From assembly GCA_948777935.1 (NCBI GenBank), contig CAQDYY010000001.1:404930-468929 (forward strand): a stretch of 64,000 bases of DNA. The letters are read 5' to 3'. Positions within the stretch are counted from its first letter, which is position 1. Each line of letters starts with the position of its first letter. The position numbers and the translations under genes are program-made. Shown here piece by piece: positions 220-59,716 of the stretch. The stretch comes from an uncultured Clostridia bacterium. Lineage in GTDB: Bacteria; Bacillota; Clostridia; TANB77; CAG-508. A model generated the notes under the pieces. It was not told the origin of the DNA, ran no database searches, and saw only the letters and a list, made by a program, of their open reading frames with translations.

Positions 220-1368
220 CTACTTTCTTAATTTTTCTACTATTTCTACTAAACTTTGTACTAAATACTCTACATCTTCTTTTGTGTTTTCATCTCCAAA
301 TGTTACACGTAATGAACCTTGTGCTATTTCACTAGATAACCCAATTGCAACTAATACATGTGATGGATCTAATGAGCCTGATGTACATGCAGAACCAGAT
401 GAAGCACATATCCCTTTTAAGTCTAAATTTAGTAATAATGCTTCTCCATCAACCCCTATAAATGATATATTAGCATTTCCTGGTAAACGTCTTGTTTTAT
501 GCCCGTTTAATTTAATATTTGGTATTTTTTCTTCTACTTGTGATATATAATAATCTCGTAAACTTGTAAGCTTCTCGTTGTATTCATCAAAATTCTTATA
601 TGCAAGTTCTATTGCTTTTCCTAAACCTACAATTCCTGCTACATTTTCTGTACCTGCTCTCATATTTCTTTCTTGATGCCCTCCATCTTGTATCTTTTCA
701 AAATTTACTCCTGTTTTTACATATAATGCTCCCATTCCTTTTGGTCCATAGAACTTGTGAGCAGACATAGATAATAAATCAATATTAAGTTCTTCTACAT
801 TTATTCTAACATTTCCAACTGCTTGAACAGCATCTGTATGAAAATATATATTATGTTTTTTTGCAATACTACCTATTTCACCAATTGGCTGGATAGTACC
901 TATTTCATTATTTGCAAACATTACACTAATTAAAATAGTATCACTTGTAATTGCATTTTGTAATTCTTCTAAACTAATTAACCCATCTGCATCTACATTT
1001 AAGTATGTTACCCTAAACCCTTCTTTTTCTAGATGTTCACATGTATGAAGAACTGCTGGATGTTCTATTTTTGTTGTAATAATATGATTTCCTCTATTAC
1101 GATTTGCATATGCAACTCCTTTAATTGCTAAATTATCACTTTCACTTCCACATGATGTAAAATAAATTTCTTTTAGATCTACTCCAATTGCTAATGCAAC
1201 CCTTTTTCTTGACTCTTCTACTGCTTTTCTTGTTTTTCTTCCAATACTATACATTGATGAAGGATTACCATATTCTATATTAAAATATGGCAGCATTTCT
1301 TTTAAAACATCTTCCTTTGTAGCTGTTGTTGCAGCGTGGTCGAAATATCTTATTTTTTCCATTTCCAT
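220..1368 (-). CDS. iscS: cysteine desulfurase (class V aminotransferase, NifS/IscS family)
   Basis: 382 aa; PLP-lysine region SAHKFYGPKG, active-site Cys loop SSGSACTSG typical of IscS/NifS. Confidence 0.9.
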   Translation of the reverse strand: MEMEKIRYFDHAATTATKEDVLKEMLPYFNIEYGNPSSMYSIGRKTRKAVEESRKRVALAIGVDLKEIYFTSCGSESDNLAIKGVAYANRNRGNHIITTKIEHPAVLHTCEHLEKEGFRVTYLNVDADGLISLEELQNAITSDTILISVMFANNEIGTIQPIGEIGSIAKKHNIYFHTDAVQAVGNVRINVEELNIDLLSMSAHKFYGPKGMGALYVKTGVNFEKIQDGGHQERNMRAGTENVAGIVGLGKAIELAYKNFDEYNEKLTSLRDYYISQVEEKIPNIKLNGHKTRRLPGNANISFIGVDGEALLLNLDLKGICASSGSACTSGSLDPSHVLVAIGLSSEIAQGSLRVTFGDENTKEDVEYLVQSLVEIVEKLRK

Positions 1369-1475: not shown

Positions 1476-1533
1476 GTAGGGGCATCGTTTAAAGGGAATA
1501 CCCATGAGACACGACACCACTGTGCCCTTTTTT
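1476..1533 (+). repeat. Family-1 conserved structured intergenic element (GTAGGGGCATCGTTT..GGGAATACCC..GACACCACTGTGCCC + T-run), copy A
   Basis: ~55 nt sequence ~90% identical to copies at 38412-38467(-) and 49389-49443(-), diverged copy at 28830-28879(-); GGGCA/TGCCC outer stem, GGGAATACCC inner hairpin, T-rich tail. Confidence 0.6.
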
Positions 1534-1537
1534 ACAT

Positions 1538-4303
1538 CTATTTTAAATTTTCACTACATCTATGGCATATATGAGGATGGTTACTATCTTGCCCTACTGT
1601 TTCAGAATACATCCAACATCTTTCGCATTTTTCTCCACTTGCCTTTTCTACTTTTACTCCTATTATAGTATCATCTTTTACTTTTCCTTCTTGTATTTCA
1701 ACTTGTGATACAATAAAGATTTCTTTTAATAATTCCTCTTTTCCTTTAATAAAGTTATATACTTCTCCATCTGCATATAAAATTACTTTTGCTTCTAATG
1801 ATAACCCTATTTCTTTATTTGCTCTTGCAAGTTCAAGTTTCTTTGCTACTTCTTCCTTTATTTTGATATATTTTTCCCATTTTTTCTCTAGTTCTTCATT
1901 ATCATATTTAGGGTTTGCCTTTGGATAGTAATCTAACATTACACTTTGAGTATTTTCATTTTGTTTATGTGGCATATATTTCCATATTTCTTCTGCTGTA
2001 TAACATGTCATTGGAGCTAAAATACGTACCAAGCTAGATAAAATCTCATACATAGCAGTTTGTGCAGCTCTTCTTTCTATAGAATCCTTTTTTAGTGTAT
2101 ATAATCTATCTTTTATTATATCTAGATAAAATGCACTCATATCTACTACACAGAATTGATTTATTGCATGATATGCATCATGGAAATCATATACGTCATA
2201 TGCTTTTATACAATCTTTTATTAGTTTATTTAACCTTGATAATGCCCATTTATCAATTTCTAGTAGATCTTCATAAGGAACTGGATTATTTACATCAAAA
2301 TCACTTATATTTCCTAATATATATCTTGCTGTATTACGTATTTTTCTATATACTTCTCCAACTTGTTTTAAAATGTTTTTTGAACCACTAACATCAGATT
2401 TATAATCTGCTGATAATACCCAAAGCCTTAATACATCTGCACCTGATTCGTTTATTACATCTTTTGGGTCAATTCCATTTCCAAGGCTCTTAGACATTTT
2501 TCTACCTTGTTCATCTATGGTATATCCATGTGTTACTACTTCCTTATATGGTGCTTTTCCTTTTGTTGCAACACTTGTTAATAATGATGATTGGAACCAT
2601 CCTCTATGTTGGTCGCTTCCTTCTAAGTATAAGTTTGCTTCTGGAAGACCACGCTCAGCAAGTACTGATTCATGTGTAGAACCAGAATCGAACCATACAT
2701 CCATAATGTCTGTTTCTTTCTTAAATTCTGTACTACCACAATGAGGACATTTTGCACCTTCTGGCATTAATTCTTTTTCAGGTAAATCAAACCAAGCATT
2801 TGAACCCTTTTCTTTAAATATTTTCTGTACTTTATCTAGGCTTTCTTCTGTTACATATTCTTTTTCACAATTAGCACAATAGAATATTGGTATTGGTACT
2901 CCCCATGTTCTTTGGCGAGATATACACCAATCATTTCTATCTTCTACCATTTTAGAAATTCTTTCTTGTCCCCAAGCTGGGTACCATTTAACTGTTTTAA
3001 TTGCACCTAAAGTTTCTTTTCTAAATCCATCAACAGATGCAAACCATTGGTTTGTTGCTCTAAATATTACTGGATGTTTACATCTCCAACAATGTGGATA
3101 AGAGTGGTTTACATCTTCACTTGCAAGTAAATATCCATTTTCATCTAACCATTTTATAATTTCTTTATCTGATTTTGCATAATACATGCCTGCAAAAGGT
3201 CCTGCTTCTTCTGTTTGATGTCCTTTAGCATTTACTGTTACAACAATGTCTAACCCATTTTTTATTCCACAGTAATAGTCTTCTTTACCATAACCAGGAG
3301 CTGTATGTACTGCACCTGTACCTGTATCTAGTTCTACTAAAATTGTATCATCTGAACCTAATACTACTCTTGAATCTCTATCAAAAAATGGATGCTTACA
3401 TATAATTCCTTCTAAATCGCTACCATCAAATTCTTTTACAGTTTTATATTCTGAAATTCCTGCTTTTTGCATTACTTTTTCTACTAATTCTGTAGCAATT
3501 ATAACCTTTTCTTTTCCTATATCTACAATGCTATATTTATAATCTGCTCCAATTGTAATTCCCATATTTCCTGGTAATGTCCATGGTGTTGTTGTCCATA
3601 TTACAAATGAAGTATTTTCTTCATCAAATTTTCCTTTTGCATCTCTTACTGGAAATTTTACATATGCTGTATGTGAATTTATATCTTTATATTCTATTTC
3701 TGCTTCTGCTAATGCTGTTTCGCAATCTGTACACCAATAAACGGGTTTTAACCCTTTATATATATACCCTTTTTTATACATATCTGCAAATACTCCAACT
3801 TGTCTTGCTTCCATTTGTGGTTGATATGTAATGTATGGATTATCCCAATCTGCTAATACTCCTAAACGTTTAAAACCTACTATTTGCTTGTCTTTATAAT
3901 CCATAGTAAATTGTTTACAAGTATCTCTAAACTTTGTAACTGGTATCTCATCTCTATTTAGTCCTAATTTTTCAATTGCCTTTTTTTCTGTTGGCATACC
4001 ATGTGTATCAAAACCTGGTACAAATGGTGTGTAATAACCTTGTAAGTTTTTATATCTTACAATAGTATCTTTTAATATTTTATTTAGTGCATGTCCTAAA
4101 TGTATTTCTCCATTTGCATATGGTGGTCCATCGTGTAAAACGAATGGTTCCTTTCCTTCATTTTTCTTAAGCATTTTTTCATATAAACCATTTTCAAAAA
4201 CACCTTCTAATATTTTAGGTTCATTCTCTGGTAAATTTCCTCTCATTGGGAAATCTGTTTTAGGCAAATTTAAAGTATCTCCATAATTTAACTCTTCTGC
4301 CAT
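1538..4303 (-). CDS. ileS: isoleucyl-tRNA synthetase
   Basis: 921 aa; HIGH motif (HLGHALNKILKD), KMSKS motif (KMSKSLGN), C-terminal Zn-finger CxxC...CxxC. Confidence 0.95.
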   Translation of the reverse strand: MAEELNYGDTLNLPKTDFPMRGNLPENEPKILEGVFENGLYEKMLKKNEGKEPFVLHDGPPYANGEIHLGHALNKILKDTIVRYKNLQGYYTPFVPGFDTHGMPTEKKAIEKLGLNRDEIPVTKFRDTCKQFTMDYKDKQIVGFKRLGVLADWDNPYITYQPQMEARQVGVFADMYKKGYIYKGLKPVYWCTDCETALAEAEIEYKDINSHTAYVKFPVRDAKGKFDEENTSFVIWTTTPWTLPGNMGITIGADYKYSIVDIGKEKVIIATELVEKVMQKAGISEYKTVKEFDGSDLEGIICKHPFFDRDSRVVLGSDDTILVELDTGTGAVHTAPGYGKEDYYCGIKNGLDIVVTVNAKGHQTEEAGPFAGMYYAKSDKEIIKWLDENGYLLASEDVNHSYPHCWRCKHPVIFRATNQWFASVDGFRKETLGAIKTVKWYPAWGQERISKMVEDRNDWCISRQRTWGVPIPIFYCANCEKEYVTEESLDKVQKIFKEKGSNAWFDLPEKELMPEGAKCPHCGSTEFKKETDIMDVWFDSGSTHESVLAERGLPEANLYLEGSDQHRGWFQSSLLTSVATKGKAPYKEVVTHGYTIDEQGRKMSKSLGNGIDPKDVINESGADVLRLWVLSADYKSDVSGSKNILKQVGEVYRKIRNTARYILGNISDFDVNNPVPYEDLLEIDKWALSRLNKLIKDCIKAYDVYDFHDAYHAINQFCVVDMSAFYLDIIKDRLYTLKKDSIERRAAQTAMYEILSSLVRILAPMTCYTAEEIWKYMPHKQNENTQSVMLDYYPKANPKYDNEELEKKWEKYIKIKEEVAKKLELARANKEIGLSLEAKVILYADGEVYNFIKGKEELLKEIFIVSQVEIQEGKVKDDTIIGVKVEKASGEKCERCWMYSETVGQDSNHPHICHRCSENLK

Positions 4304-4442: not shown

Positions 4443-7065
4443 TTGGGTACAAATATAAAATTAGAAGAGATTCATTTAGACGAAAAATATGGTGAACAAG
4501 CTCTTTTACCTCCAAATGAGTTTTTATCTAAGATGAATTTTTTAAGTGATGGTCTTAGTAGTGATGATGCTATTTCTCTTCTTCATAAAAATGGTTTAAA
4601 TGAATTAAAACAAGCTCGTGAAAAAAAATGGTACAATTACTTGTTTTCAAGCTTATTTAGTCCTTTTAATATTATATTATTATTAATATCTTTGGTACTT
4701 ATTTATACTGATGTTATATTAGCTGATACTCCAAGCTATGCAAATATTGTAGTTATTTTAGTTTTAGTAACAGCAAGTACTCTTCTTGAATTTGTACAAG
4801 AATATCGTTCAAATAAAGCTGCTTTAAAACTCGAGAGCCTTGTAGCAACTACCACTACTGTGTTAAGAGATGGTAAAAAAATACGGTATACCTATAAAAG
4901 AAGTGGTAATTGGAGATGTTGTTTCTTTATCCGCTGGAGACATGATACCTGCAGATATTCGCATTATAGAAGAAAAGGATTTGCATGTTGGTCAGTCTAC
5001 TCTTACTGGTGAATCTGAACCAGTAAAAAAGCTATCTACATCTACTCTTTCATCTATAAATAATATAAAAGATGTATCAGATTTAGATACTATATGTTTT
5101 ATGGGTACAAATGTAGTAAGTGGAAGTGCTAAAGGTGTTGTTATAAAAACTGCGAATGATACTTATTTTGGTAAAATTGCAGGAGTTTTAGAACATGGAA
5201 AGCCAAAAACTGCTTTTCAAAAAGGAATTGAAAATATTAGTAAACTCCTAATTCGTTTTATGTTAGTTATGATTCCTATTACTTTTTTAGTTAATGTTTG
5301 GAAACATAGTGTTCTAATTACATTTACATTTTCAGTTGCTATTGCAATTGGAATTACACCTCTTTTACTACCTGTTATTCTTTCTTCTTCACTTGCAAAA
5401 GGTGCAATTCGTATGTCTAAGAAGAAAACCATTGTAAAAAAGATGGATTCTATACAAAGTTTTGGTGCTATGAATATACTTTGTACTGATAAAACTGGAA
5501 CTCTAACAAAAGATGAAATTGTTCTTCAAAAATATTTAGATATAAACGGAAATGAAAATTATGGTGTTCTAAAACATGCCTTTTTAAATGCATATTTTCA
5601 AACTGGCTTAAAAGGTAATATTGATACAGCGATTATTGATAAAGCAAATGAAATGGATTTGACTAATATATCTACTAACTATAAAAAAATTGATGAAATA
5701 CCTTTTGATTTTTCAAGACGTAGATTATCTGTTATTGTATCTGACGGAACAAAAACACAGCTTATTACTAAAGGTGCTGTAGAAGAAATTTTATCAATTT
5801 GTACTCTTGTTTATGATAATGGAAATGTAACTGAAATTACACCTAAAATAAAAGAAAATATACGAAACTTTACTAAAAATCTAAATTCTGATGGTTTACG
5901 TGTTATTGCAGTATGCCAAAAAAATGATATTTCTGATATTAGTAATTTTTCTGTTAAAGATGAATCTAAAATGGTGTTAATGGGATTTATTGGCTTTTTA
6001 GACCCACCAAAAGAAAGTGCAAAACAAGCTATTGATAGGTTAAATGAAAAAGGAATTCGTGTTATTGTATTAACTGGAGATAATGAATATGTAACTAAAT
6101 GTATTTGTGATAAAGTTGGTATTAATTCAGCAAGAATCATATCTGGTAATAAAATAAGTAAGTTATCTGATATGGCTTTACTTCGTTTACTTTATGATAC
6201 TAATATTTTTGTAAAATTAAGCCCTATTGAAAAGGCTAGAATTGTAAGGTTATTAAAAGAAGCTGGAAATGTTGTAGGTTATATGGGTGATGGAATTAAT
6301 GATAGCCCTTCTCTTACTAATGCTGATGTTGGTATTTCTGTAGATACTGCTGTTGATATTGCAAAGGAAACTTCTGATATTATTTTATTAGAAAAGGATT
6401 TGAATGTTTTATTAGATGGTGCAATTGAAGGTAGAAAAACTTTTGCTAATTTACTAAAATATATCAAAATGGCTGTTAGTTTTAACTTTGGTGAGGTATT
6501 ATCTGTACTAATTGCAAGTATTGTACTTCCATTTTTGCCTATTACCCCAATCCAATTACTAGTACAAAGTTTGCTTTATGATTTTGGGCAATTATCTCTT
6601 CCTTTTGATAATGTAGATGCAGAATATGTAACCAAACCTAGAAAGTGGAATTTGAAAGATTTACGAAATTTTATGTTTTTTATGGGACCAACTAGTTCTA
6701 TCTTCGATTTAATGGTATTTGCTTCTTTATGGTTTGGCTTTGGTTTAAGGCTACCCCAAAGTGCTCTTTTCCAAACTATTTGGTTTAGTTATGGGGTTGT
6801 TTCAAACTTAATTGGTTTACACATTATTAGAACTGCAAAAATGCCATTTGTACAAAGTAATGCTTCTACACCTGTATATGCAACATCCATACTTTTAAGT
6901 ATTGTAGCATTAATTGTTCCTTTTACCTTTATAGGAAAATGGATTGGACTTGTTCCTTTTGCTCCAATTTATTTAGTAGTAATAATTGGCTTTCCAATTC
7001 TTTATTGCTTTATTGCAAGTTTTGTTAAGAAATTGTATATTAAAAAATATGGTGAATGGATATAG
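4443..7065 (+). CDS. mgtA: Mg2+-importing P-type ATPase (MgtA-like); reading frame broken by 1-nt indel in an A7 run near 4874-4880 (two overlapping ORFs 4443-5012 and 4870-7065)
   Basis: N-terminal ORF matches MgtA TM1-2/TVLR region; second ORF has DKTGTLT phosphorylation motif, TGDN, GDGINDSP hinge; frames join across aaaaaaa homopolymer. Confidence 0.8.
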
Positions 7066-18833: not shown

Positions 18834-19169
18834 CTTTTTCCTCCTTATTATAACATTTTATTTTTTATTATGCAATACAAAATGACAATTTGTTTTAAGT
18901 TTTTTTACCACCTTCTTTACTTCATTTTTGTTTTTGGATTTTTGTTCTAGAATTTTTAGAACTTTCTTTTTGCTCTTACACTGATGTTTTTGAATTTTAA
19001 ATTTTTAGATTTAATTCTTTTTTATTATACATCTTTTTTGTTATTTTGCAAGAAAAACTTTTCGACATTTTTAGACAGTATTTTTATATATTCTATTAAT
19101 CATAATTTTTCATAATGTAACTTAAAATAGCATGTTCTGTTATAAAAAAGCAAAAGCAAAATATATGGA

Positions 19170-19335
19170 ATTTGAAAAGAAGCGTCTTGAAAGTAAATTT
19201 TGTATACGTATGTTTTAAAAATTTGTGGGAGAATCTCACACACTTGTGAGAGGGGCCTACAAATTTTTATTACATACTGTGCAAAATTTATCTTGAACGA
19301 GCGGTTTTGAAAATTCCATATATTTTACTTTTGCT
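19170..19335 (+). repeat. Family-5 ~165-bp repeat, copy 1 (second copy 37334-37498, ~97% identical)
   Basis: Near-identical sequence aatttgaaaagaagcgtcttgaaagtaaattttgtatacg...gtgggagaatctcacac..gtgagaggggcc...; imperfect terminal inverted repeat GGAATTTGAAAA / TTTTGAAAATTCC. Confidence 0.7.
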
Positions 19336-24101: not shown

Positions 24102-24148
24102 ATATTTAATTTTTTTAATTTATTTTGGATTTTATTTAGATTTATGTA

Positions 24149-24445
24149 TTAATATAAATGATTATACTGTTTTGATTTTACCCAAATGATGTTAACAAAA
24201 TGAATATTGTTATCTTCTATACGATAGATAATAACATATTTTAGAATTGGAATTTTTCTGTGCTCTTGTTTTTTATCAAATATAGGATACATTTTAGGAA
24301 AAGTTTTTAAAAGTTTGATTTTTTGAACTAGTAATTTTTGAAATTCATCACTTGAATAGATATAGTTACTTGAATAATAATAAGTATAGATCTTTCTTAA
24401 TGCCATTTTAAATTCGTCTGTTGAGGTAAAATAATAATCATTCAT
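24149..24445 (-). CDS. type II TA toxin, RelE/ParE family (pair 1)
   Basis: 98 aa; FPKMYP...YVIIYRIEDNNIHFVNII matches ParE/RelE C-terminal pattern; overlaps upstream antitoxin by 8 nt. Confidence 0.6.
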   Translation of the reverse strand: MNDYYFTSTDEFKMALRKIYTYYYSSNYIYSSDEFQKLLVQKIKLLKTFPKMYPIFDKKQEHRKIPILKYVIIYRIEDNNIHFVNIIWVKSKQYNHLY

Positions 24446-24647
24446 AATGCTTCAACCCGAATTCTTTTTCCATTTCTCTTAATACTTTATCAAGTGGTTC
24501 TATTCTTCCTGCTTTAATATCTTCTTCTCCTCTTCTTATTGCTTCTTTTACATATTCGTTGTATTCTCGGTCTTGTCTTGCTTTTTCTTGTAGATATTCT
24601 TTTAGATTAAATATCTTCTTTAGTTTTAGTTCTTTTACATTTATCAT
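24438..24647 (-). CDS. type II TA antitoxin (small DNA-binding, ParD/RHH-like) pair 1
   Basis: 69 aa from MINVKELKLKK; track N-extension lies over predicted promoter TTGCAT-17-TAAATT. Confidence 0.55.
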   Translation of the reverse strand: MINVKELKLKKIFNLKEYLQEKARQDREYNEYVKEAIRRGEEDIKAGRIEPLDKVLREMEKEFGLKHYE

Positions 24648-24766
24648 GTTTTTACATCCTTTCCTAATATAATTTACCACACAAGAACATATTATGCAAT
24701 ACTTTTTTGGCAATGTTTTAATATTTAGTTGTTACTTTTATTTTGGATTTGGTTTAGATTTATGTA

Positions 24767-25042
24767 TTAATAAAATAGACTTTTATAATTTGATTTTATT
24801 GGAAATATATCATAGATATTAATTAAATCGTCTTTAACTATATATAGAATAATATAATTCTTAACCCAGAACTTTCGATATTTTGTATTTTCAAATACTG
24901 GATACATTTTAGGAAATATTCTAATGTTTTCTATTTTTAATAAGATTATTTTATACATATCTTCAGAAAATTGTTCTGTATTTTGTAATAATGATGCTAC
25001 ATTGTATGTAAATTTATCAGAGAAATGAACATTCTTAATCAT
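24767..25042 (-). CDS. type II TA toxin, RelE/ParE family (pair 2, diverged paralogue)
   Basis: 91 aa; FPKMYPVF...YIILYIVKDDLINIYDI; same architecture as pair 1. Confidence 0.55.
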   Translation of the reverse strand: MIKNVHFSDKFTYNVASLLQNTEQFSEDMYKIILLKIENIRIFPKMYPVFENTKYRKFWVKNYIILYIVKDDLINIYDIFPIKSNYKSLFY

Positions 25043-25244
25043 AGTGCTTCATCCCCAGTTCTTCTTCCATGTATTTTTTGAATTCTTCTAATGTACAATA
25101 TCTTCCTGCTACAAAGTCTTCTTCTGCTTCTTTAAGTCCTTTTTCTATATATTGTCTGTATTCTCGGTCTTGTCTTGCTTTTTCTTGTAGATATTCTTTT
25201 AGATTAAATATCTTCTTTAGTTTTAGTTCTTTTACATTTATCAT
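25035..25244 (-). CDS. type II TA antitoxin pair 2
   Basis: N-terminal 30 aa identical to antitoxin 1, C-terminal toxin-binding half diverged. Confidence 0.55.
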   Translation of the reverse strand: MINVKELKLKKIFNLKEYLQEKARQDREYRQYIEKGLKEAEEDFVAGRYCTLEEFKKYMEEELGMKHYD

Positions 25245-25315
25245 GTTTTCACATCCTTTCCTATTATAATTTACCACACAAGAACATATTATGCAATACT
25301 TTTTTGGCAAAATTT

Positions 25316-25375
25316 AAAAAGTAGCTTCACCATAGGGACGAGCAATGCTCTCCCCTATAGCTTTAACATGAAGCA
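25316..25375 (+). repeat. Family-3 structured element, copy 2
   Basis: See copy 1 at 8626-8685. Confidence 0.5.
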
Positions 25376-28829: not shown

Positions 28830-28879
28830 TTAGGCACAGTGTGTAGGCTCACGAGTATTCTTAAACAATGGTGCCCCTA
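28830..28879 (-). repeat. Family-1 element, diverged copy D (between pyrH and frr)
   Basis: GTAGGGGCACCATTGTTTAAGAATAC...ACACTGTGCC shares ends and GAATAC core with copies A-C. Confidence 0.4.
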
Positions 28880-28882
28880 CAT

Positions 28883-34577: not shown

Positions 34578-34725
34578 CATAGGTAATAATTATATAAATA
34601 ACTACGAAGAATCTCGGAGCCATAAGTGGGGACCAATAGAAACCGTCAAAATGTGTTTACACATTTTGTACAGTTCCACCCAGGAATGGCGACGGTTCGT
34701 AGGTATTTATATATTATTACCTATG
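34578..34725 (+). repeat. Family-4 structured element with long flanking inverted repeats, copy 1 (between gerA-A and gerA-B genes)
   Basis: Core ACGAAGAATCTCGGAGCCATAAGTGGGGACCAATAGAAACCGTC[hairpin]...GGAATGGCGACGGTTCGT; second copy 52531-52675; stems show compensatory changes. Confidence 0.6.
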
Positions 34726-37333: not shown

Positions 37334-37498
37334 ATTAAAATTTGAAAAGAAGCGTCTTGAAAGTAAATTTTGTATACGTATGTTTTAAAAATTTGTGGGA
37401 GAATCTCACACCCCTGTGAGAGGGGCCTACAAATTTTTATTACATACTGTGCAAAATTTATCTTGAACGAGCGGATTTGAAAATTTTATATATTTTAG
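37334..37498 (+). repeat. Family-5 ~165-bp repeat, copy 2
   Basis: See copy 1 at 19170-19335; 4-5 mismatches. Confidence 0.7.
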
Positions 37499-38411: not shown

Positions 38412-38467
38412 AAGAAGGGCACAGTGGTGTCATGTCTTTTGGGTATTCCCACAAACGATGCCCCTAC
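38412..38467 (-). repeat. Family-1 element copy B (between nrnA and truB)
   Basis: GTAGGGGCATCGTTTGTGGGAATACCCAAAAGACATGACACCACTGTGCCCTTC on minus strand. Confidence 0.6.
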
Positions 38468-45067: not shown

Positions 45068-45109
45068 TTTCCTTTTTCCTCCCTTTATATTTATTTGTAA
45101 TTGTATTTT

Positions 45110-45166
45110 AAGAACCCCCAGTCAGCTTCGCTGACAGCCCCCTTAGGTAAAGGGGCCTTTACTCTA
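45110..45166 (+). repeat. Family-2 GC-rich hairpin element (AACCCCCAGTCAGCTTCGCTGACAGCCCCCTTAGGTAAAGGGGCC..), copy a
   Basis: Copies: 58899-58955(+), 49719-49773(-); variant form 49786-49897(+), 58990-59048(-); first hairpin stem differs between copies but stays paired. Confidence 0.65.
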
Positions 45167-45179
45167 CTATTTTTAAATA

Positions 45180-47940: not shown

Positions 47941-49347
47941 CTATGCTTTTACTTCTTCTTTTTTTGTTTCTTTTTCTTCTTTTGGCATATTGTTATTTTC
48001 ATCTTTTTCATCTGGTATGATAAAGTTTAATATAATTCCTGCTATAGCTGCAAGACTCATTCCAGAAATTGATACAGCTATTCCATTTCCTGTAGAAATT
48101 GAGAATGCAGCTCCGCCAAGTCCAAGAACTAACATTGCAGAAGCAACTATTATGTTTTTATTTTTGCTAAAGTCTACTTTATTTTGAATTAGAACTTTTA
48201 ATCCATTAACTGCAATAAATCCATATAATAGAAGTGAAACTCCTCCAAGTACTGGGTTTGGTATTGTTTGAACAAGTGCTGTGAATTTTCCAAAAAAGCC
48301 TAAACATATAGCTATAATTGCTGCTAACCCTATTACCCAAACTGAAGCTATTTTTGTCATTCCAACTACTGAAGTGTTTTCTCCATAAGTTGTGTTTGAA
48401 GGTCCTCCTAAAAAACCTGCGACAAATGTTGCTATTCCATCTCCCATAAGTGTATTTTCAAGCCCTGGATCTTTTAATAAGTCTTTTCCTATAATTGTTG
48501 AAAGTGCTTTGTGATCTCCTATATGTTCAGCCATTGTAACTAACGCAATTGGTGCCATTGTTAAAGCAATTCCTAAATTTGGTGTATAATTTACAAATGG
48601 AACATAGAAATTTGGAAGTTGAACCCAAGCTGCATCAGCTATTACTGTGAAATCTACTAGTCCTAAAACACAAGCTGAAATATATCCTGCAATAATTCCA
48701 ACTAAAAATGGAATTATTTTTATAAATCCTTTTGCCCTTGTCATAATTAGTGATGTAACTAAAAATGTAATAAGTGCAACAACTGGTCCTTTCCATTCTA
48801 TACCAGATACTATTTCTCCTCCTACTGAAACAGTAGTATCAAAAATATTTCCAACTGCAGATGTTGCAAGTCCTAAACCTATTATCATAATCATTGGTCC
48901 TATTACTATTGGTGGTAATAGTTTATCTATCCATTTTTTACCAACAAATCTTACTATAAGTGAAACTATGAAATATACTATACCTACTACCATTACCCCT
49001 GTCATAGCTCCAGCAATTCCGTTACTAACTCCTCCACCATTACTAGCTCCAGCAATATATGCTGCTATAATTGGTGAAATAAATGCAAATGAGCTTCCTA
49101 AGAAAACTGGTGATTTTGCTTTTGTACAAGCTATGTAAATAAGTGTTCCTATACCAGCTGTTACAAGAGCTACTGCAATTGAAAGTGCTTGTCCTTCCAC
49201 ACCAGCTGCAGCAATTCCACTATTTACTAAAATTGGTACTAAGATTGTTGCACCAAACATTGCAAATACATGTTGAAATGCAAGTATTATCCATTTTAGT
49301 ATACTTGGCTTTTCATTTACGTCTAAAACTAATTTTGTTTCATTCAT
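47941..49347 (-). CDS. pyrP: uracil/xanthine permease (NCS2 family)
   Basis: ~468 aa from MNETKLVLD with AGGAGG RBS; 12-14 TM, NCS2 signature; upstream of upp. Confidence 0.8.
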
Positions 49348-49388
49348 TTTTATTCCTCCTAATATTTTCTTTTTGGGTTGTGTAAAGT

Positions 49389-49443
49389 AAAAGGGCACAG
49401 TGGTGTCATGTCTAACTGGTATTCCCACAAACGATGCCCCTAC
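49389..49443 (-). repeat. Family-1 element copy C (5' UTR region of uracil permease)
   Basis: GTAGGGGCATCGTTTGTGGGAATACCAGTTAGACATGACACCACTGTGCCCTTTT on minus strand. Confidence 0.6.
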
Positions 49444-49718
49444 ATATAATCTTTCTACACCATAAAAAATCACTAAAACCATATGTTTTAGTGATTAATT
49501 TATATATTGTAAAAGAATTGTAGCAAATGCAAAAACTAGCAAAGTAACTTTGCTTATTACTGTTTTAGTAGAGTTTACATTTTCTACAAAATTTCTCATT
49601 TTTTACACCCTAAAAGATAGTACTACAATTTCCATAAAAGTTCAAGTACTTTTTTGTAATTTTTTAAGATTTTTATAATACTATTCATACTTCTTTTATA
49701 AGAACTTACGAAGCTTTG

Positions 49719-49897
49719 CAAGAGAGCCCCTTTAATAAGGGGGCTGGCGCCGATAGGCGACTGGGGGTTCTTAAAAAACATTTAGAAGAACCCTCCGTCA
49801 GTGCTTCGCACTGCCAGCCACTGCATAAGATATCTGTAATGCTCACTAGCGTTCGCTAACAGCTATCTTAACCTCCCTTGTTAAAGGAGGTTTCTTG
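49719..49897 (+). repeat. ~180-bp imperfect palindrome formed by two Family-2 units head-to-head (MITE-like, ~26-bp terminal inverted repeats CAAGARASCYCCTTTAAYAAGGGRG)
   Basis: Unit 49719-49773 (minus orientation) and unit 49786-49897 (plus orientation, with ~50-bp insert); outer ends are reverse complements of each other. Confidence 0.6.
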
Positions 49898-52448: not shown

Positions 52449-52530
52449 TTTATATCCTCCAATCAATCATTACAAATTATACCAAAATTTGTAAATTAAA
52501 ACAATAATTTTACATAATTTTGTATTTTCA

Positions 52531-52675
52531 TCTATAATAGTATATAAATCTCCACGAAGAATCTTGGAGCCATAAGTGGGGACCAATAGAAACCGTCAAA
52601 ATGCGCAAGCATTTTGTACAGTTTCATTGGGGAATGGCGACGGTTCGTGGGGATTTATATACTATTATAGATGTG
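52531..52675 (+). repeat. Family-4 structured element, copy 2, with perfect 20-bp flanking inverted repeat TCTATAATAGTATATAAATC
   Basis: See 34578-34725; P1 stem CCACGAA/TTCGTGG vs CTACGAA/TTCGTAG in copy 1 (compensatory). Confidence 0.6.
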
Positions 52676-58876: not shown

Positions 58877-58898
58877 GTTAATATTCTCCTTATTTTCT

Positions 58899-59048
58899 AA
58901 AACCCCCAGTCACCTTCGGTGACAGCCCCCTTAGGTAAAGGGGCCTTTACTCTATAATTTTTAGACTAGCACAGTAATTTTGAAATGTAGAGAAAAGCCT
59001 CCTTTATTTAAGGGAGGTGGCTCGCGTAGCGAGACGGAGGGTTCTACT
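58899..59048 (+). repeat. tail-to-tail pair of Family-2 units between cmk and plsC
   Basis: 58899-58955 (plus form) and 58990-59048 (variant form on minus), separated by CTCTATAA...TAGAG spacer. Confidence 0.6.
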
Positions 59049-59050
59049 CC

Positions 59051-59716
59051 TTACATCTTTTCTTCTATAATTTTATATACAACATCTGCACATTCATCTA
59101 TACTCATATTAGTTCCATCTACTAATATTGCATCATCTGCTTTTCTTAATGGTGCAATTTCACGTTCAGAATCAATTTTGTCTCTTTTTATTACGCTTTC
59201 TAATACTTCTTCATAAGACATTTTAATTCCCTTTTCTTCATTTTGTCTTATTCTTCTTCTTGTTCTTTCTTCTGCTGATGCATCTAAATAAATTTTTACA
59301 TCTGCATTTGGAAATACTACAGTTCCTATGTCTCTTCCTTCCATTACAATACTTTGTCCTTTTGCTAAATCGCGTTGTAACTCAAGTAGTCTCCCACGAA
59401 CTTGTGGTATTTTAGATACTTCTGAAATGATATCTGTTATTTGTTTTGTACGTATCTCGGTTGAAACATCCTCTCCATTTAAGAATACACGTTGACCATT
59501 ACTTTCTTCTTTAAAGCTAATTTCTATTTTGTTTAATAATTCTTCTATTTTTTCTATTTCGTGTAACTCTATTTTCCTTCTTATTATTTCTAGTGTTACA
59601 CACCTAAACATAGCTCCTGTATCTACATTTAAAAATCCAAATTTTTTAGATACAAGACTTGCAATAGTTCCTTTTCCAGTTCCTGCTGGTCCATCAATAG
59701 CAACAATAAATGACAT
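59051..59716 (-). CDS. cmk: cytidylate kinase
   Basis: 221 aa; P-loop AIDGPAGTGKGT, NMP-binding region. Confidence 0.9.
   Translation of the reverse strand: MSFIVAIDGPAGTGKGTIASLVSKKFGFLNVDTGAMFRCVTLEIIRRKIELHEIEKIEELLNKIEISFKEESNGQRVFLNGEDVSTEIRTKQITDIISEVSKIPQVRGRLLELQRDLAKGQSIVMEGRDIGTVVFPNADVKIYLDASAEERTRRRIRQNEEKGIKMSYEEVLESVIKRDKIDSEREIAPLRKADDAILVDGTNMSIDECADVVYKIIEEKM

Follow-up and report, generated by a model that had tools for sequence, protein, structure and literature searches.

Four copies of a GTAG-footed element in the window

The window, by which we mean the whole 64-kb stretch of DNA that was analysed, carries four copies of a short element in four gene neighbourhoods: those of NifS-type cysteine desulfurase and IleS, PyrH and Frr, NrnA and TruB, and uracil permease and Upp. 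Both the sites and the flanking genes had been named in the original prediction; the genes are as claimed, and the sites were confirmed by the sequence, an nhmmer profile and a covariance model, with limits refined to run from the GTAG through the last C of the closing stem.

220-1368, minus strand: nifS, neighbour of copy 1
1476-1527, plus strand: copy 1, antisense to its neighbours (covariance model 74.4 bits; nhmmer E = 3.4e-17)
1476-1479: GTAG foot of copy 1
1480-1485: GGGCAT of copy 1, pairing with GTGCCC at 1522-1527
1494-1503: inner hairpin of copy 1, GGG-AATA-CCC
1528-1533: T-run following copy 1
1538-4303, minus strand: ileS, neighbour of copy 1
28833-28880, minus strand: copy 4, diverged, sense, pyrH-frr spacer (covariance model 41.4 bits, E = 1.9e-9; nhmmer E = 1.2e-7)
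38417-38467, minus strand: copy 2, sense, nrnA-truB spacer (covariance model 78.4 bits)
49393-49443, minus strand: copy 3, sense (covariance model 78.8 bits)

An nhmmer profile built from family members and run on the window matched exactly these four copies. The covariance model, used with filters off on both strands, gave them 41.4 to 78.8 bits, the next match reaching 10.8 bits (E ~0.8), and the four-copy match is far above chance. Pairwise identity among copies 1 to 3 is 89-93% and copy 4 is clearly diverged; all four are singletons. Copy 2 occupies the 76-nt nrnA-truB spacer, from 3 nt past the nrnA stop to about 20 nt short of the truB start, and copy 4 starts 2 nt past the pyrH stop codon. 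Copy 3 is placed between a canonical terminator hairpin (49496-49468, minus strand) and the start codon of the uracil permease (49347). The longest open reading frame for this permease (47941-49482, minus strand) begins 45 codons before the likely ATG at 49347 and takes in copy 3.

Two descriptions of the copies stood only in part. The setting had been called co-directional, which is true of the genes flanking copy 1, both on the minus strand, but copy 1 itself lies on the plus strand, antisense to local transcription. The T-run had been counted as part of the element; T-rich sequence does follow copies 1 to 3, but there is none at copy 4, and TTTT within 6 nt was found at only 28 of 93 family copies.

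The element folds on the GTAG strand into a branched structure

The element, of about 50 nt, has GTAG as its 5' foot and, immediately after it, a basal stem rich in G-C, GGGCAY...GTGCCC, inside which lie the GGG-AATA-CCC hairpin, a variable third hairpin and the conserved unpaired blocks CGTTTG and GACACCAC. Across 90 aligned copies the GTAG, the GGG next to it, CGTTTG, GGAATAC, ACACCACT and GTGCC were invariant or at least 90% conserved; within the foot the first G and the T were invariant, and the A and the second G reached at least 90%. About three quarters of these copies had been fetched with a pattern fixing GTAGGGGCA, so that the invariance of the outer blocks is partly a matter of sample selection; the copies that nhmmer added and those that flank RAYT genes (see below) have GTAG as well. 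Some 20 unpaired nucleotides of the interior show conservation of at least 90% in 20 or more species, which is beyond what a hairpin needs.

The closing stem and the GGG-AATA-CCC hairpin, both drawn in the original prediction, proved real. Three helices are supported in the alignment, namely the basal stem (columns 12-20 with 55-64), the GGG-AATA-CCC hairpin and the variable third hairpin. With this model 84% of the cells were paired, compared with 33-54% when the partners were slid, and the covariation score was 0.157 against 0.124 in shuffles, a value reached by none of 500 shuffles. Pair 41-45, for instance, alternates between GC (22 sequences), UA (18) and AU (10). Wobbles amounted to 120 G.T and 43 A.C, meaning that the strand carrying GTAG is the one selected to fold. 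As read from the alignment, folding on this strand is what would be expected of a strand-specific single-stranded DNA (or RNA) substrate. When single sequences were folded as RNA, the copies did no better than their shuffled counterparts (z = -0.06 to -1.39 for the sense strand, with similar values for the antisense strand).

One further candidate feature, a TGTAGA box upstream of copies 1 and 3 and of some RAYT-flanking copies, was set aside, as it was present at 13 of 90 copies against a background of 11.5% and is thus not enriched.

The family is dispersed in low-GC gut Clostridia and polymorphic in its insertion

We scanned species-representative genomes with the pattern GTAGGGGCA-N25-40-CACTGTGCC and took 100 loci among the matches listed. 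About three quarters of the listed matches were true family members, all of them in low-GC (24-34%) MAGs of uncultured Clostridia, Clostridiaceae or "Eubacteriales" from gut metagenomes; the others were chance matches in GC-rich sequence or belonged to simple GTAG palindromes of other phyla. A profile search of the fetched low-GC loci gave at least 93 distinct copies in at least 20 species-level assemblies, with up to at least 22 copies in one MAG among the matches listed. Most copies are intergenic. No orthologues of the window's flanking genes were found among the 100 listed genome loci, and a scan of viral contigs yielded one GC-rich chance match and no phage link. Apart from the pairs that flank RAYT genes, which are about 500 nt apart, the fetched loci held a single, partial inverted doublet (L007), so a REPIN/BIME organisation was not seen in them.

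Where the flanking reading frames could be resolved, 39 copies were sense and 10 antisense between co-directional genes, 6 lay between convergent genes and 8 were in divergent contexts. In about 82% of copies the strand with GTAG coincides with the G-rich, majority-gene strand. The 4:1 sense bias could reflect selection at the RNA level, and in loci of 8 kb it is fully confounded with replication-strand bias, as judged by GC skew; the same strand bias would be expected if Y1 transposition is tied to the lagging-strand template (PMC6006769).

The infB-rbfA-nrnA-truB locus provided a direct view of presence and absence. Orthologous sites were reached through TruB homologues. All four samples of the window species have the element at this locus. 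It is missing from the nrnA-truB spacer of a species at 85% TruB identity, where other small hairpins lie, from those of two species at 70% and 68%, which hold inverted doublets of another repeat, and from that of a species at 65%, which is an empty 16 nt. Its presence in the window species only, as against these four relatives, indicates that the element is an insertion and not a conserved part of the operon.

In two loci (L011, 2281-2338; L083, 357-414) a copy lies in frame and antisense within a long dnaE-like reading frame with a PHP-domain N-terminus. This insertion adds about 20 residues (EKGTVV.CLTGIP.NGAPTN) and has been kept in two different species-level MAGs. Repeats of the REP type within genes have been reported previously (PMC6006769; also among the families treated in PMC3733652).

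An inverted pair of elements flanks a RAYT gene in related genomes

At one of the fetched loci (L022) a 152-aa reading frame (5038-5493) is bracketed by inverted copies of the element (4967-5023, plus strand; 5503-5560, minus strand), the outer flanks of which are identical. Its product has the HuH motif (NHIH) and YIINNP, and passes the Pfam Y1_Tnp model (24.3, gathering score 23). The best NCBIfam match was NF047646, REP-associated tyrosine transposase (E = 1e-18), with a score of 67.7 bits that lies below the curated equivalog cutoff of 80 bits, and the match to the IS200 model NF033573 was weak (E = 3.6e-4). Database homologues are named "REP element-mobilizing transposase RayT" by JGI. 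When a profile of the clade was run against the PDB, the sole match was 4ER8 (E = 1.2e-9), which is E. coli TnpA-REP bound to REP.

The same inverted flanking was observed in six more lineages (L085, at 65% identity; L102; L103-105; L106, at 52%; L199-208; L209-214). In all seven, a gene of about 150 aa lies inside an inverted pair of elements whose GTAG ends point outward. In L106, which has the most divergent RAYT, the flanking elements carry compensatory changes (GGGCAGAT/ATCTGCCC) that keep the basal stem. NHIH, WQ and YIxNNP are invariant in 16 of 16 aligned RAYT sequences. Each RAYT variant was found in one fixed genomic context (dus-rpoB; leuS-like-HD), as is expected of a single-copy resident gene. 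The calls of four RAYT reading frames (P0008, P0009, P0010, P0018) run through the repeat, and several database RAYTs begin with REP-encoded GIPVRHDTTVP.

We found no RAYT gene within the 64-kb window. The RAYT P0259, together with five surrounding copies of the element (contigs L210 and L212), is present in assembly ERZ13641590 and in JGI metagenome 3300006133, and both of these also contain contigs that encode exactly the TruB of the window. In ERZ13641590 the RAYT and TruB contigs are both in NCBI, with coverage of 5.0 and 4.6. The window species thus very probably carries the RAYT and its flanking repeats (a "REPtron"), on the basis of co-occurrence in the same assembly and metagenome and not of a closed genome. 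RAYTs P0008, P0009, P0010 and P0001 all come from samples other than that of the window genome.

A metagenome scan with the RAYT alignment listed matches that were all distant RAYTs (33-47% identity, GC 29-63%). In 67 of 80 such loci we counted at least two occurrences of GTAGGGGC, when about 8.6 occurrences would be expected over all 80 loci. The foot and the base of the stem are thus common to RAYT loci over a very wide compositional range, and it is the interior that differs here. In many of the distant loci (L115-L194), GTAGGGGC palindromes stand about 27-80 nt apart inside the RAYT coding region, about 260-300 nt in; in-frame REP insertions in subclass 2.4 RAYT genes are a published oddity (PMC6006769), with which these loci agree.

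The element as a probable, atypical REP sequence of subclass 2.4 type

We conclude, with a probability that we put at about 0.85, that the element is the REP sequence of a REP/RAYT system in low-GC uncultured gut Clostridia. Among the functions first suggested, that of a small mobile repeat holds: the element is dispersed and insertion-polymorphic, and an inverted pair of it flanks a RAYT gene in related genomes. That of a protein-binding site is likewise supported, the RAYT being the presumed binder.

The family is of the subclass 2.4 type. Quentin et al. (2018) gave NH[IFV]H, WQ and YIxNNP as the TnpA-REP signature of this subclass, the REPs of which have a 5' GT[AG]G and three G-C pairs at the bottom of the stem, some being "double-foot" and some lying in genes (PMC6006769). 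The Clostridia family has the GTAG foot and the three-G-C stem bottom, a RAYT with all three motifs, a RAYT gene flanked by inverted REPs and some REPs inside genes; the GTAGGGGC found around 67 of the 80 distant RAYT genes, which were fetched by the clade motifs and are each unassigned to subclass, is a further likeness. It differs in having a branched module of about 38 nt with conserved unpaired blocks in place of a long or "double-foot" hairpin, in lacking a 3' CTAC foot, and in a RAYT of about 150 aa as against a median of 194; moreover, none of this clade's RAYT genes was seen with an internal REP. The hosts are different as well. Subclass 2.4, which corresponds to Group 4 of Bertels, has been described for the most part from Cyanobacteria, Bacteroidetes and scattered phyla (PMC6006769; PMC5581495), whereas the hosts here are low-GC uncultured Clostridia, and Bertels et al. 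(2017) mention Clostridia RAYTs for Group 1 (PMC5581495).

The REP structure is atypical, with an unusual branched interior and mostly singleton copies. Its basal stem has six contiguous pairs, with two more after a C.T mismatch; the branched interior that it encloses measures about 38 nt and contains two small hairpins. The automatic REP definition of PMC6006769 calls for a basal stem that is paired throughout its 7-20 nt and closed by a loop of 2-5 nt, or for a stem-bulge-stem; the basal stem here is too short for it and the interior is branched. The same work accepts manually found atypical structures for other subclasses. Some of the matches to our pattern in Chloroflexota and Deltaproteobacteria MAGs (L023, L037, L071, L081, L087) are themselves GTAG palindromes of the simple or double-foot form, GTAGGGGCACAGCG...CGCTGTGCCCCTAC being one of them, and the basal stem of the Clostridia element is thus common to classical REPs of other phyla.

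Compared with the REP/BIME sequences and TnpA-REP of E. coli, as described in PMC3333891 and PMC3479197, the element is likewise a GTAG-tagged hairpin repeat that is intergenic and lies mostly in co-directional or convergent spacers, and, as in the E. coli REPtron, a single HuH/Y1 gene stands between REPs, the clade profile matching 4ER8. Unlike the RAYT found here, that of E. coli belongs to subclass 2.2 (DHLH, WE, YIHYNP), and its REPs are simple hairpins of about 35 nt, usually in BIME pairs, as against 50 nt and mostly singletons. The 24 GTAG families of Di Nocera et al. (2013), as the survey presents them (PMC3733652), share the GTAG tag, the intergenic position mainly between unidirectional or convergent ORFs, the presence of some copies in genes and many plausibly transcribed copies; unlike the present element they are simple palindromes of 20-40 bp, often dimers. 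The main text of that survey makes no mention of Clostridia or Firmicutes.

Proposed mechanism and alternative explanations

By homology with E. coli TnpA-REP and the IS200/IS605 transposases, the RAYT would bind the GTAG strand in its folded, single-stranded state, as may arise on the lagging-strand template. It would recognise the GTAG foot and the stem, then cut and rejoin nearby, and such cutting and rejoining would have seeded the copies and would maintain them. Binding of a folded REP with its GTAG, cleavage and rejoining are in vitro results for E. coli TnpA-REP only (among those described in PMC3333891 and PMC3479197), and their extension to this RAYT and its REP is by homology. The four copies of the window would be passive singleton products that landed in short spacers between genes. 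Those in the sense orientation, three in all, would be co-transcribed with their operons and may incidentally alter 3' processing or stability of the mRNA, which would not be the defining function of the element. It is conceivable, if rather unlikely, that the branched interior adds a second functional layer absent from ordinary REPs, be it a new three-way-junction recognition by the compact 150-aa RAYT or an exapted RNA module. In the latter version a protein-binding or RNase-blocking structure would be carried into operon mRNAs, and this, if true, would account as well for the excess of sense copies (4:1) and for the preferred G.U-compatible pairs.

We weighed the REP/RAYT reading against three others. 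A cis-acting RNA, that is, an intrinsic terminator or attenuator transcribed with the housekeeping operons and ending or modulating transcription at the U-tract, was among the functions first suggested. It would accord with the sense orientation of three of the four window copies and the T-rich sequence after them, with the 39:10 sense bias in tandem gene contexts and with wobbles that, being G.U-compatible, favour the sense strand; TTTT within 6 nt of 30% of the family copies is also well over the few per cent expected from a rough base-composition estimate for AT-rich DNA, and in E. coli partial termination and the stabilising of mRNA are known roles of REPs, according to accounts in PMC3733652 and PMC3479197. 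Nevertheless, copy 1 is antisense, the family has 10 tandem-antisense, 6 convergent and 8 divergent copies, and the distance from the upstream stop codon to the sense copies, from -4 to 504 nt (median 77), has no fixed geometry. A T-run is missing from 65 of the 93 copies (~70%), the copies gain no folding energy over shuffled sequence, and a terminator scan called no hairpin with a T-tail at the three near-consensus window copies scanned. Real terminators adjoin copies 1 and 3, that of ileS being a separate A+T-rich hairpin at about 1421-1455. The element is missing from the orthologous nrnA-truB spacer of relatives, even occurs in frame within a dnaE-like gene, and its flanking of RAYT genes would be left unexplained. 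Searched against Rfam 15 at gathering thresholds, the whole window gave three tRNAs and nothing else, and with permissive settings the neighbourhood of copy 1 reached at best 16 bits, far below any cutoff; the element thus has no Rfam match. We therefore hold a terminator or attenuator to be most improbable, and the broader suggestion of a dispersed regulatory RNA gives way to a REP-type repeat. The original prediction had offered to be judged on whether the motif recurs and whether it matches a known Rfam family: it recurs in relatives, and no such match was found.

The conserved interior could also be read as the mark of independent small RNA genes, or of a site for a host protein unrelated to transposition, such as a nucleoid or RNA-binding protein, the RAYT link being secondary and the unpaired CGTTTG and GACACCAC forming the recognition surface. 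The roughly 20 interior nucleotides conserved across species would suit this explanation, as would the recruitment of IHF by E. coli REPs and their part in mRNA turnover, on which PMC3479197 reports. Against it, a promoter scan of the three near-consensus copies gave no consistent promoter-like site upstream, the GTAGA box is at background frequency, and copies 2 and 4 lie inside operon spacers a few nucleotides from stop codons. Interior conservation is equally explicable by RAYT recognition and recent amplification, and the sequence of the element is tied to the RAYT by the stem changes seen with the most divergent of these proteins (L106). We regard this explanation as improbable. A non-autonomous element of the IS200/IS605 type (a PATE or MITE), moved in trans by an ordinary multi-copy TnpA-IS200 and not by a domesticated RAYT, was also considered, and some evidence would suit it: the associated protein is a Y1 HuH enzyme with the Pfam Y1_Tnp match and the weak one to the IS200 model, and the ends of IS200/IS605 also bear subterminal hairpins read as single-stranded DNA (PMC6006769). 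As with those hairpins and PATEs, the element would offer a folded single strand to a Y1 HuH enzyme, its folding is strand-specific and tolerates G.T, and an orientation bias would be expected from coupling to the lagging-strand template. However, the best matches of the protein are the RAYT model and 4ER8, not IS200, and its Y motif is of the class-2 (RAYT) type, Y---NP (PMC6006769). The flanks are two inverted copies of one element instead of a left and a right end that differ, no tnpB gene was found at the RAYT loci examined, the gene is of the single-copy RAYT class with each variant in a single fixed context, and the repeat unit is one 50-nt hairpin module and not a bounded element. There is accordingly very little likelihood in our view of an IS200/IS605 derivative.

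With the element taken as a REP, a concrete and reusable annotation replaces a speculative "new regulatory RNA". The 50-nt covariance model together with the cognate RAYT clade would allow hundreds of conserved intergenic blocks to be masked or explained in little-studied Clostridia MAGs from mouse and human gut, blocks that could otherwise be mistaken for terminators, sRNAs, riboswitch candidates or N-terminal extensions of reading frames; over-extension through the repeat is already present in several RAYT and permease ORFs in databases. The family extends the known GTAG-REP/RAYT systems into low-GC Clostridia, and the combination of a branched-fold REP with a very compact RAYT offers a tractable pair for the study of how HuH/Y1 enzymes read folded single-stranded DNA.

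Other repeats in the window

Several other repeats were noted in the window. A second dispersed family that starts with GTAG, of about 70 nt, is found at 45106-45175 (minus strand), 58894-58963 (minus strand) and 58987-59055 (plus strand), with a partial copy at 49759-49787. Its sequence reads GTAGAG(T/A)AAAGGCCCC-TTTACCTAA-GGGGGC, then TGTCAGC-GAAG-CTGAC, then TGGGGGTTC, and compensatory changes between copies occur in both hairpins. The copies at 58894-59055 form an inverted doublet, and inverted doublets of this family are those that fill the nrnA-truB spacer in two related species (L196, 2330-2490; L197, 2320-2490). It may be a second REP/REPIN family.

A repeat of 159 nt (19169-19327 and 37339-37497, the latter just downstream of truB) is 97% identical between its copies and internally palindromic, with inverted arms of 57 nt and 33 nt; it looks like a MITE. 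Another, of about 130 nt (34591-34719 and 52529-52673), is 86-94% identical and has terminal inverted repeats of 30 nt (TATATAAAT...) around a G+C-rich core, with no match in Rfam. Finally, a direct repeat of 218 nt (24504-24721 and 25101-25318) is 90% identical and accompanied by repeated upstream segments; the repeats at 24106-25318 span four small ORFs of about 91-98 aa, which suggests tandemly duplicated small genes.
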